Source: Salinicoccus sediminis (GTDB lineage Bacteria; Bacillota; Bacilli; Staphylococcales; Salinicoccaceae). From it: 64,000 nt of DNA. How positions within the stretch are numbered: the first letter of the stretch is position 1; each line of letters starts with the position of its first letter. This document shows positions 45,001 to 48,000 of this stretch, in pieces. The stretch covers positions 3,055 through 67,054 of the forward strand of contig NZ_LAYZ01000003.1 of assembly GCF_000986795.1 (NCBI RefSeq). The letters run 5' to 3'. The position numbers were made by a program.

Positions 45001-48000
45001 TTATTAACTCTGTTGCGGTCATTCCGTGAATGGCGTAATGTAATTTATTTTGTACCGTGGCAAAAAATTCTCTGGTTAGTGATGACTGAGAGTCCTAATC
45101 AATTGATGTAGCATAAATATCTGTGATCTTTAAATAAAATCTCTTCTCTGATACACGAATATCACGAATTCGTTCTAACAGTTCATCAAAATAATCAGAA
45201 CCAATATTACGCATTTCCTTCAATCTATCATCATTCATTGTAAAGCCTTTTACAAGATATTCATTCAGACGGTTAGTTACCCATTGCCTGAATTGGGTAC
45301 CCCGATGAGATCCTACACGGTAACCTACAGCAATGATTACCTCAAGGTTATAAAAATTAGTCTGCCGGGCAATCTCTCTGTTACCTTCGGTTTGAACTAT
45401 TCGGTTTTTCCGAAGAGTTGCAAATTCAGTAAGTTCTCCGTCATCATAAATATTTTTAATATGCTCATTGATGGTCGGCAGACCTTTTTGGTAAAGTTCT
45501 GCTATTGATTTTTGAGTCATCCAAACTGTCTCATCTTCTAAACGTACGTCTATCTTAGTTTCTCCATCTTCAGTCTGGTACATTAAAAAGTTTATATTGC
45601 TCAATTTCAAACCACCTTATAATGGATTTATAATTGTATATTTTACCACAAAACGGAACTGACGTTCTTATATTTATATCTCTTTTAAAATTACATATGA
45701 AGGTCGAATTTCGTGTAAAGCTTATTTATGATAGCTCTCTATGTATCGGCTAATGATACGATTTTATGAATATTAAAAAATTCTTTAACTTTATTATGTT
45801 GCAGTCTTTAATAAATTATTCACTATTCTACTAAAGCAGCCTCAAATTTGAAGATATTTATATTCTTTAAAAAATAACGTATTATTACACTGTGTTTATA
45901 AGGTGTTACGGATGGGTAAACTTACTCAAGGAGGATGATATTAATGAAAGCAGTTACTTATCAAGGTCATAAAAATATGGAAGTTCGAGAAGTGAATGAT
46001 CCAACAATAGAAGAATCAACAGACGCAATTATAAAAATAACAGCTTCAGGTATATGTGGTTCTGATTTACATCTTTATCATCAGGGCGATTTATTTATGG
46101 ATTCTGATTTTGTTATTGGACATGAGCCAATGGGAATTGTAGAAGAAGTAGGAAAAGAGGTTAAAACCTTAAAAAAGGGAGATAGAGTAGTTATACCTTT
46201 TAACATAGGTTGTGGCGATTGTTTCTATTGTAATAATGAAATGGAGTCTCAGTGTGATAATTCTAATCCATCACCGGCAAGTTGGAAAATGAATAATGGT
46301 GGACTCTTCGGTTTTGGTGGCATGCACGGAAACTATTGGGGAGGTCAAGCAGAGTATTTAAGAGTGCCATTTGCCGATTTTTCCTCTTTCAAAGTTCCAG
46401 ATAGTGATTTGAAAGACGAACAAGTATTATTTTTATCTGATGTGGTCCCAACAGCTTATTGGAGTGTTGAACATGCAGGCGTAAAATCTGGAGATACCGT
46501 TATTGTTCTCGGTTGTGGTCCAATCGGTTTAATGGCACAAAAATTTGCTAAATTAAAAGGCGCTGAACGTGTTATTGCCATTGACAATGTAGAACATAGA
46601 TTAAACCATGCCAAAAAATCCAATGGCGCTGAAGTATATAATTTTTCTAAAGAAGATAATATAGGAAAATTACTTCATGAAAGCACACGCGGTGGTGCAG
46701 ATGTCGTTATAGATTGTGTTGGAATGGATGGCCAAGTTGCTCAAGATGATTTAGAGATAAGTTCAAATTCAGCGCAACGAGGTAATATTAGTCCCATTAT
46801 TACAGCAGCTGAATCAGTAAGAAAATTTGGAACGATTCAATTAACTGGTATTTACGGTACACCTGCAGACAATTTTCCAATAGATTTAATTTTCAATAGA
46901 GATGTCCAAGTAAAAAGTGGACAAGCGCCAGTTATTCATCAAATGCCAAAATTATATGAAATGATTAAAAATGAGGTTTTTGATCCAACAGAAATTATAA
47001 CGCATACAATGCCTTTAGAAGAAGCAAGTCAAGCTTATGATATTTTTGATCAGAAAAAAGATAACAATATTAAAGTCATTTTAAAACCGCAATGATAACT
47101 ATATAAATACAAAAGAAGTATAAACGTAACTTCTTGATTAAATGAAGAAAGCCCATTTCTCTTGAAATAATATAGAAATGGGCTTTCTTATATTATTTTA
47201 ATACTATGAATGAGAGTTTTTTCTGTTTTATATTTAGACTCCCGAGAGAACAAAAGAAGATAAGGAATACTAGTTAAAGTTGCCTTATAAGAAATTAGAT
47301 CCAACAATACTGAGTTATTATACGTAAGGCAACCAATAAACAAATTTATAAAAACTCATTTAATAGCTATTTCAATTTAATAAACAATTTCTTAGAATGA
47401 TTAAAAATCTCATCAACGATGATATGCTTCTGCGTACCGGTCTACGATGCGGTTTTTTGATTAGTTAGAATGGTGATTTTAGAACCTTTCTTTCACCTTA
47501 ACACACGAGCCCATCACTGTATTATATCTTCATATGCAATTCCACACTTAACACTGTATTTTGAAGGGAACCAAGCTAAAATTGAAATATTTGAGAACAG
47601 AACAATATTATTGCAATACTTTGATGATTATTTTCCTCGCGAAAATGCTGCGTAAAAACACAATACTGCAAGTCCTACTTTTCCTTCATCTGTTTCAAGC
47701 TTTTCTTCTATAATAAATAACCGTTCAGAAAATCGCTTGAAACGTTCAGTGATTTCAACAGGTACATTGAACGAATTAATTTTCACTATATTTTCAATTT
47801 CTAATTCTCCAAATAAAACATCTGAATTGGTTTCATACCTGTCGCCATTCACTTCAATAATCACATGAAATTTGAATAACGACTTGAAGAAATTTTGTCT
47901 GATTGTACCTATTTTATGTCCAGATTCGTTGAGTATAAATATTTTCTTATTAAAAAAACCTCGAACATCCAGTGTCATTAAATGACCATTTTCACTTTCA

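Follow-up and report, generated by a model that had tools for sequence, protein, structure and literature searches.

The rlmH locus of Salinicoccus sediminis

The stretch of Salinicoccus sediminis DNA analysed here (64,000 nucleotides of contig NZ_LAYZ01000003.1, hereafter the window) has a GC content of ~50% overall, within which a tract of 30-38% GC extends from ~44.4 to ~50.5 kb. A 5.9-kb island of low GC (32-34%) sits 3' of rlmH and begins at the last rlmH codons, the integration site sequence (ISS) of staphylococcal cassette chromosome (SCC) elements at the 3' end of rlmH/orfX. On the minus strand, the island is ordered as rlmH, attachment site 1 (att1), cassette A, att2, cassette B, att3, cassette C, att4, and chromosome, and its open reading frames (ORFs) are assigned by Pfam to a GntR regulator, an ATP-binding cassette (ABC) ATPase, an ABC-2 permease, a 253-aa membrane protein, an alcohol dehydrogenase (ADH), and a RhuM-family protein. 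The junction att2, between cassettes A and B, is very probably a hybrid SCC-type attachment site left by the site-specific recombination of a large serine recombinase resembling the cassette chromosome recombinases (Ccr). Two independently mobile, recombinase-less cassettes are joined at this site behind rlmH. The features concerned are as follows.

50509-50988, minus strand: rlmH (orfX homologue), the integration target (Pfam SPOUT_MTase, 5e-56)
50498-50550, minus strand: att1, the rlmH-proximal junction (regular expression; repeat families D1, D2, and I1)
47431-50524, minus strand: cassette A (GntR-ABC), 3,096 bp from GA to GA, 33.7% GC
49902-50297, minus strand: GntR regulator (Pfam)
49039-49905, minus strand: ABC ATPase (Pfam)
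48438-49052, minus strand: ABC-2 permease (Pfam)
47628-48389, minus strand: 253-aa membrane protein, the end of the ABC module nearest att2
47401-47458, minus strand: att2, the A/B junction, a complete SCC-type att site with two half-sites round a central GA
45740-47428, minus strand: cassette B, ~1.7 kb, 31.7% GC
45935-47095, plus strand: zinc-dependent alcohol/formaldehyde-type dehydrogenase, the sole gene of cassette B (Pfam ADH_N/ADH_zinc_N)

Anatomy of the att2 junction

The plus strand at 47401-47460 reads ttaaaaatctcatcaacgatgatatgcttctgcgtaccggtctacgatgcggttttttga. An initial annotation had noticed here a minus-strand string resembling the Staphylococcus aureus ISS and, 15 nt away on the plus strand, an inverted copy of its 3' half, and had placed the pair at a junction between the dehydrogenase gene (45935-47095, plus strand) and the membrane-protein/ABC module (47628-50297, minus strand). 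Both strings were located as described, GAAGCATATCATCGTTGATGAGATTTT at 47404-47430 of the minus strand and GATGCGGTTTTTT at 47446-47458 of the plus strand, exactly 15 nt apart, and the coordinates of the junction agree. With the S. aureus ISS string GAAGCATATCATAAATGATGCGGTTTT, for which 23 of 27 matching positions had been given, 22/27 positions agree, and a better match is found in Salinicoccus kekensis (L020), where the genuine rlmH end and its downstream bases are identical to GA-AGCATATCATCGTTGATGAGATTTTTA, the right half of att2, at 28/29 positions. A search through the window for the S. aureus string with up to three mismatches gave no match, and the literal S. aureus ISS was rejected as the nearest relative, the likeness being to genus-specific rlmH ends. 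The sole match to GARGCNTATCAT in the window with one mismatch is att2, a result that is not significant alone.

Read on the minus strand, att2 consists of two half-sites on either side of a central GA (47430-47429). The left half, AAAAAACCGCATCGTAGACCGGTACGCA (47458-47431), is the end half-site of cassette A and contains the inverted GATGCGGTTTTTT, and the right half, AGCATATCATCGTTGATGAGATTTTTAA (47428-47401), is the half-site of cassette B, which mimics the last five rlmH codons and the bases beyond them and reads ..EAYHR*. The CGTTGA ending (..YHR*) is the native end of rlmH in at least six related species, including Salinicoccus albus, Salinicoccus sp. HZC-1, Salinicoccus jeotgali, Salinicoccus sesuvii, and a Jeotgalicoccus metagenome-assembled genome. 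Each half is an imperfect inverted copy of the other; at the corresponding site of Salinicoccus sp. ID82-1 (L060, contig JAGFLY010000002.1) the inverted repeat extends over 21 nt without a mismatch. The inverted partial copy, which had been likened to a terminal inverted repeat, is the conserved element-end half-site AAAACCGCATC-N8-GATACG-NN that precedes every distal ISS in the window (att2, att3, and att4) and in relatives, as a terminal half-site does in SCC. Alignment of 14 distal sites gives AAAAAACCGCATCATAAACCGATACGCnGAAnnTATCATAAATAATGCG, in which the GA and the C of the TATCAT core are invariant. The 8-bp core of att2 is TATCATCG, which agrees with TATCATAA at 6/8 positions; several related species have this variant as their native rlmH end.

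The att sites of SCC are described as two degenerate inverted half-sites round a central GA at which exchange occurs (bioRxiv 10.64898/2026.03.31.715619, citing Misiura 2013, Wang 2012; PMC6222049). Of the four half-sites, three are derived from the element and one lies inside rlmH, and the C of the core, TATCATAA, is essential (bioRxiv 10.64898/2026.03.31.715619; PMC6222049). Judged by its sequence, att2 matches this published anatomy, and all 14 aligned sites have the central GA together with a core of the TATCATAA type that keeps the essential C. Predicted pairing of a 75-nt stretch shows a dyad centred on the GA that is no more stable than shuffled sequences (z = -0.54), and a terminator scan at att2 called none; the symmetry therefore fits a protein-binding site and not a terminator, and a reading as terminator or RNA structure was rejected on these two results.

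Statistical significance of the sites

An 18-nt degenerate pattern derived from the rlmH 3' ends of 32 Salinicoccus, Jeotgalicoccus, and allied genomes has four matches on both strands of the window (50526, 47430, 45739, and 44592), all of them on the minus (rlmH) strand and within the island, the one at 50526 being the rlmH end itself. The island thus contains four cores as direct repeats in the same orientation, the arrangement of the ISS repeats in SCC. First-order Markov simulations of island size contained a mean of 0.0115 matches and never more than one. At the 32 related loci, no match was found on either strand in 271 kb upstream of rlmH, and the 15 matches downstream of rlmH are all rlmH-oriented. 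Similarly, a 49-column log-odds matrix of the full distal site, for which only eight sites of other genomes without a cassette in common with the window served as training set, gives its highest score in the window to att2 (47.9 bits) and its next highest to att3 (31.1 bits), while the maxima of 100 simulated windows have a mean of 9.1 and a highest value of 20.1 bits; the ISS likeness proposed by eye is thus recovered by formal comparison. In addition, an unsupervised repeat finder returned the half-site and the core as the two largest direct-repeat families.

45742-45770, 47433-47461, and 50488-50516: repeat family D1
44575-44592, 45722-45739, and 50509-50526: repeat family D2

Independent occurrence of cassettes A and B

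Copies of cassette A with 99.5-99.8% identity and with both ends at att sites were found at loci L054/55, L056, L061/62, L063, L064, and L065. For example, identity is 99.76% between the metagenome contigs L054/L055 and window 50341-47428 and 99.5-99.6% for L061, L062, and L063 from the proximal GA to the GA of att2, and L056 has the last 1.5 kb of the cassette in common with the window. To the left of the att2 GA, the window sequence is present in all of L054, L056, L061, L062, and L063. To the right of it, L054, L061, and L063 continue as GA-AAATTACCATAAATAG and then into a small Fic cassette, L056 continues as GA-AGCGTATCATAAGTGATGCGGT, and L062 has a degenerate half-site. At the proximal end, L063 carries a different element-end half-site up to the GA, where homology to cassette A begins. 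Because the homology breaks at the GA on both sides, the two ends of cassette A, a unit of 3,096 bp, are fixed to the nucleotide. The dehydrogenase gene is missing from four of these contexts (L054/L055, L056, L061/L062, and L063).

Cassette B occurs without cassette A in L060, which is 92.9% identical to window 47436-45863 (att core, right flank, and dehydrogenase gene) and has unrelated DNA (HxlR, hps, phi, and an insertion sequence) to the left of the GA. The occurrence of A without B and of B without A means that partners switch at the GA, so that each of the two cassettes is found as the same unit beside other neighbours, with breaks at the crossover dinucleotide. Separate occurrence of the two sub-modules had been set beforehand as a test of the junction, and it was observed for both, at 99.5-99.8% identity for A and 92.9% for B. 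The split of the island at att2 that had been proposed along with it holds as a cassette junction, but the island comprises three cassettes and not two, with att3 at 45739 and the distal att4 at 44592. The supposed higher AT-richness of the ABC module was not borne out, cassette A having 33.7% GC vs 31.7% for cassette B (34.7% for the ADH ORF).

Further observations concern the surroundings of cassette A. The ATPase carries the database label 'MULTISPECIES [Bacillales]', and a metagenome scan for the cassette A end gave no matches. A ~0.8-kb segment (a 53-aa ORF and a Fic-domain gene) follows the att site in L054, L061, and L063, is absent from L062, and looks, from its sequence, like another mini-cassette. 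In L061 (8312-12470; ERZ28606231 scaffold_1) and L062 (SRR4217687_99), the copy of cassette A is 99.5% identical to the window and lies behind an NMO/IMPDH-family gene, with pheST and a SpoU methylase in the neighbourhood. This NMO-family gene ends in 12 codons (VNKILRNENYHK*), ~40 nt, that reproduce the rlmH tail together with the rlmH-internal half-site and the GA, and the locus could be a secondary attB or the product of a rearrangement.

The dehydrogenase ORF of cassette B (34.7% GC) lies between AT-rich flanks of 24-26% GC. Its product is 100% identical to a Salinicoccus sediminis protein, and exact-protein look-ups with the window ADH and RlmH gave no matches. From ribosome-binding site to stop (window 45929-47107), the ORF has 95-97% DNA identity to copies in Staphylococcus chromosomes and in Staphylococcus and Listeria plasmids (hits H1-H10), with unrelated flanks. 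This identity, confined to the ORF, indicates that the cargo gene was derived from the staphylococcal/Listeria pool. A plasmid origin of the cassettes was rejected because the plasmids match the ADH ORF and not the flanks, cassette A, or cassette C. Similarly, the staphylococcal chromosomal ADH loci (L057, L066, and L067) were set aside, having the ORF alone in common with the window and not an att-bounded cassette. In staphylococci and in L060, the dehydrogenase gene is near formaldehyde-detoxification genes (hps/phi, HxlR, and DJ-1). A complete distal-type att site, AAAAACCGCATCATTAACCGATACGCA-GA-AGCTTATCATAAATAA, is present on the minus strand of L057 (Staphylococcus gallinarum) at 19788-19832, ~8.6 kb from its dehydrogenase copy.

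Remaining att sites, cassette C, and flanking DNA

Beyond cassette B, the island and its distal flank contain the following features.

45718-45766, minus strand: att3, between the divergent ADH and RhuM genes (regular expression; matrix, 31.1 bits; families D1 and D2)
44593-45737, minus strand: cassette C, ~1.1 kb, 34.2% GC
44615-45610, minus strand: RhuM-family gene in two pieces (Pfam Virulence_RhuM on both halves)
44571-44619, minus strand: att4, the distal island end (regular expression; family D2; GC step)
43835-44389: host-like HTH-cupin gene beyond att4, followed by AzlC and AzlD, in DNA of 42-43% GC vs 32-34% in the island

At the proximal end, att1 consists of the rlmH-internal half-site, the GA (50526-50525), and the core GAGAATTACCATAAATAA (50526-50509), which encodes the last rlmH codons. 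It is followed by a degenerate additional half-site or dyad at 50458-50516. Past the rlmH stop, the stretch of cassette A at 50400-50516 (minus strand) contains an additional element-end half-site, AAACCGCATTGCAGACTGATACG, a 25-nt inverted repeat (50458-50482/50490-50514), and a degenerate ISS-like ATGCTTATTGATGCGG (50400-50415). These extras are kept with cassette A in L061 and L063 and look like remnants of older att sites. In att3, AAAATCGTATCATTAGCCGATACATA is the half-site, 45739-45738 the GA, and GAGAGCTATCATAAATAA (45739-45722) the core stretch, its 8-bp core being TATCATAA. At att4, the half-site AAACCGTATGCAGACTGATGCGGC and the GA (44592-44591) are joined to the core GAGAGCCATCATAAATGA (44592-44575), after which TGGAGTTTTT follows. 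The identification of att4 is supported by the core pattern, family D2, the half-site, and the GC step. Thus, three cassettes make up the island, each bounded by att sites without an internal recombinase, and the arrangement that defines pseudo-SCC, an att pair enclosing cargo with no ccr between, is found in cassettes A, B, and C alike.

The RhuM-family gene of cassette C is a pseudogene because of one in-frame TAG (45095-45097, from translation). RhuM genes directly after rlmH or an ISS are found in Salinicoccus carnicancri (L001), Salinicoccus sp. HZC-1 (L006), and Jeotgalicoccus coquinae (L032). Compared with window 42400-44774, locus L068 of a related strain (Logan ERR15804836) has 100% identity from the RhuM tail through att4 and the intergenic DNA and 99.5% in the HTH-cupin gene, after which identity falls to 96% in AzlC, 90% in AzlD, and 92% beyond. 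The abrupt switch from ~100% to ~92% identity inside the host flank points to an exchange of island and flank by homologous recombination; homologous recombination and transformation are documented routes of SCC transfer (PMC9072672, PMC12648241).

Other rlmH loci show related arrangements. In Jeotgalicoccus meleagridis (L026, 10463-10700), five tandem ISS cores without cargo occupy ~230 nt right after rlmH, an 'empty' att-site array as judged from its sequence, and similar ISS doublets, 54 nt apart, are present in L021 and L032. ISS-bounded elements without a recombinase lie behind rlmH in Salinicoccus sp. HZC-1 (L006, 10457-19701) and S. kekensis (L020, 10463-18902). Their cargo comprises type I restriction-modification together with PIN, PD-(D/E)XK, or TIR/SEFIR proteins, so predicted defence cargo occupies the same rlmH hotspot as in staphylococci.

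Upstream of the island, RlmH of the window is 92% identical to that of S. carnicancri, and the order walK-yycHIJ-rlmH is the staphylococcal arrangement.

51873-56591, minus strand: walK, yycH, yycI, and yycJ, after which rlmH comes next (Pfam)

At window ~40825-40922, gene orientation and AT/GC skew flip: genes left of this point are on the plus strand, those right of it on the minus strand. A convergence of skew and orientation only ~10 kb away from rlmH would be surprising if rlmH has the same place close to the origin that it has in staphylococci, and the flip may mark an inversion boundary.

Proposed history and alternative explanations

Strand exchange would take place at the central GA between imperfectly inverted half-sites, and the island has probably grown by serial insertion at the rlmH-proximal site. 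Since new elements enter rlmH-proximally, C would be the oldest cassette, B would have entered in front of it, and A, the newest, in front of B. The insertion of A would have converted the former junction of rlmH and B into the internal A/B junction att2, in this lineage or in a donor. The identity levels fit this order: copies elsewhere are 99.5-99.8% identical for A and 92.9% for B, and the junction of C with the chromosome is shared with L068, with 90-96% identity in AzlC/AzlD. If a Ccr were present, recombination of att1 with att2 would excise a circular A and join rlmH to the half-site of B, restoring the end ..EAYHR*. The circular junction P(A)-GA-P'(A) would read ...GGTACGCA-GA-GAATTACCATAAATAA..., and the scar would be rlmH-GA-AGCATATCATCGTTGA. 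Recombination of att2 with att3 would excise B, and larger combinations would be possible. Neither the island nor the window has a recombinase gene, and the cassettes could be excised or shuffled again only by a Ccr acting in trans. In staphylococci, plasmid-borne CcrAB excises and circularises cassettes that lie in tandem between att sites downstream of SCCmec, defence loci without a described recombinase among them (PMC11470126).

Several results weigh against a Ccr-made att2 at the centre of a composite island. Motif and phmmer screens, which are of limited sensitivity, detected no large serine recombinase in the 64-kb window or, among the 32 related genomes, in the first 10 kb past rlmH; the enzyme is therefore deduced from its sites and not seen. 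The screens (regular expressions, and phmmer with small resolvases) returned only two small resolvases (L015 and L018) and IS3-type transposases (L015 and L016), and Pfam assigned no Resolvase or Recombinase domain, the mark of a ccr complex, to any island ORF. The mec gene complex (mecA/B/C/D) that defines SCCmec is likewise absent among the island ORFs, and with neither ccr nor mec in the 64-kb window, the locus is a ccr-less (pseudo-SCC) composite island and not an SCC element in the strict sense. The 8-bp core of att2 is TATCATCG and not TATCATAA. A comparative breakpoint at att3, the B/C boundary, was not obtained from the compared loci. The full-site matrix score of att4 (13.6 bits) is inside the null range, a low value that is due to a 1-nt indel. 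Neither an empty rlmH site nor conserved synteny downstream of rlmH was found among the 32 relatives, so that the distal boundary depends on att4 and the GC step. Finally, the copy of cassette A behind a gene other than rlmH in L061/L062 means that integration is not strictly rlmH-bound, or that rearrangements occur. In staphylococci, the ccr complex includes the SAUGI gene. SAUGI homologues reported from Salinicoccus sp. YB14-2 and J. meleagridis (PMC10303552) hint that ccr-bearing elements may exist in Salinicoccus/Jeotgalicoccus.

The negative screens are in keeping with a fossil junction, made by a Ccr in a donor and brought in when the island or parts of it arrived by homologous recombination or transformation, the site now being inert in a cell with no cognate recombinase. 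This is possible, though less likely than not, and draws on the RhuM pseudogene, the pattern of identity to L068 (100% across the RhuM tail and att4 and into the HTH-cupin gene, 90-96% further on), which suggests an exchange of island and flank, and the documented transfer of SCC by both routes (PMC9072672, PMC12648241). However, the central GA, the essential C of the core, and both half-sites of att2 are intact, and near-identical copies of cassette A in at least four contexts, ending exactly at att, argue for recent site-specific movement in the gene pool; moreover, a fossil junction would bear on the present activity of the site and not on its identity. That att2 is instead a leftover of the rlmH 3' end, duplicated or displaced by illegitimate or homologous recombination and marking no cassette ends, is highly improbable. 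Its right half does code for the rlmH-like tail ..EAYHR*, and the 40-nt rlmH tail fused to an unrelated gene in L061 indicates that fragments of rlmH ends can be relocated, but the likeness to rlmH starts exactly at the GA, the sequence upstream is the conserved element-end half-site and not rlmH coding sequence, and both adjoining modules switch partners exactly at the GA. A chance likeness in AT-rich intergenic DNA (24-30% GC), or a terminator hairpin of the ABC operon suggested by dyad symmetry followed by a T run, can practically be dismissed: the matrix score of att2 is more than twice the null maximum (47.9 vs 20.1 bits), the island holds four pattern matches vs 0.0115 expected, the breakpoints of the left and right modules at the GA count as a refutation of chance, and the fold, no more stable than shuffled sequences, and the empty terminator scan speak against a hairpin.

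Comparison with known systems

The extension of the SCC mechanism, with att-bounded cassettes behind rlmH, to a halophilic genus of ~50% GC concerns a known element type in a new host, and for the window itself it provides a clean annotation and not a new principle. No paper describing SCC-type islands in Salinicoccus was found, which given the incomplete coverage of the literature is absence of evidence only, and no mec gene has been reported in the genus (PMC12648241). Near-identical cassettes in unrelated contexts support the rlmH locus as a family-wide exchange point for accessory genes and not only as a staphylococcal resistance island. The exact GA-to-GA limits and the genus-specific att consensus could help SCC-detection tools, which are less sensitive outside Staphylococcus.

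The closest known systems are the composite SCC islands with ccr-less cassettes of Staphylococcus and Mammaliicoccus (pseudo-SCC, 'no_ccr_element'/SCI). Like the island in the window, they are integrated at the 3' end of rlmH, consist of tandem cassettes parted by direct att repeats, carry accessory cargo, and have att sites of degenerate inverted half-sites with a central GA and a TATCAT-type core. Their ccr-less cassettes rely on Ccr in trans (bioRxiv 10.64898/2026.03.31.715619; PMC11470126), as those of the window presumably would. Unlike these islands, the window belongs to a Salinicoccus host of ~50% GC, its cassettes are tiny (1.1, 1.7, and 3.1 kb, with one gene or operon each), its core is the variant TATCATCG/TACCATAA, and its 64 kb contain no ccr or mec. 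By sequence, the island therefore fits a ccr-less composite SCC in every feature tested and departs from SCC proper in lacking ccr and mec.

Outside Staphylococcus, the SCC-like Enterococcus cassette chromosome (ECC) similarly has ~50-bp att repeats at rlmH, a dyad at its distal att site, and a core in which the C of TATCATAA is conserved (PMC6222049), and half of the elements have multiple distal sites (PMC6222049). ECC is large and encodes its own ccrAB, whereas the island in the window consists of mini-cassettes without a recombinase. A precedent for cassette A in L061/L062 is the ccrDE island of Staphylococcus brunensis, which is reported as an SCC-type element outside rlmH (PMC10581047); in contrast, the island in the window is at rlmH, the L061 site has a copied rlmH tail, and no ccrDE was seen.

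A functional analogy, and no more than that, can be drawn with integron arrays, in which small, promoter-poor single-gene units ending in imperfect palindromic sites are likewise ordered with the newest unit nearest the platform gene and with the recombinase outside the cassettes. On this analogy it is possible, though rather unlikely, that in Salinicoccus/Jeotgalicoccus and relatives the rlmH tail serves as an integron-like platform, where a Ccr available elsewhere in the cell would stack and shuffle recombinase-less cassettes of 1-3 kb, each with a Ccr-type half-site at its end, and spread them between genera, and that the cassettes could also land at secondary sites copying the rlmH tail, such as the NMO-family gene of L061/L062; this suggestion draws on the 97% identity of the dehydrogenase ORF to staphylococcal copies and on the 'MULTISPECIES [Bacillales]' label of the ATPase. 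Integrons differ in that they use the tyrosine recombinase IntI, as opposed to a putative serine Ccr, that attC is a folded single strand, and that an integrase belongs to the platform, whereas none lies beside the array in the window.

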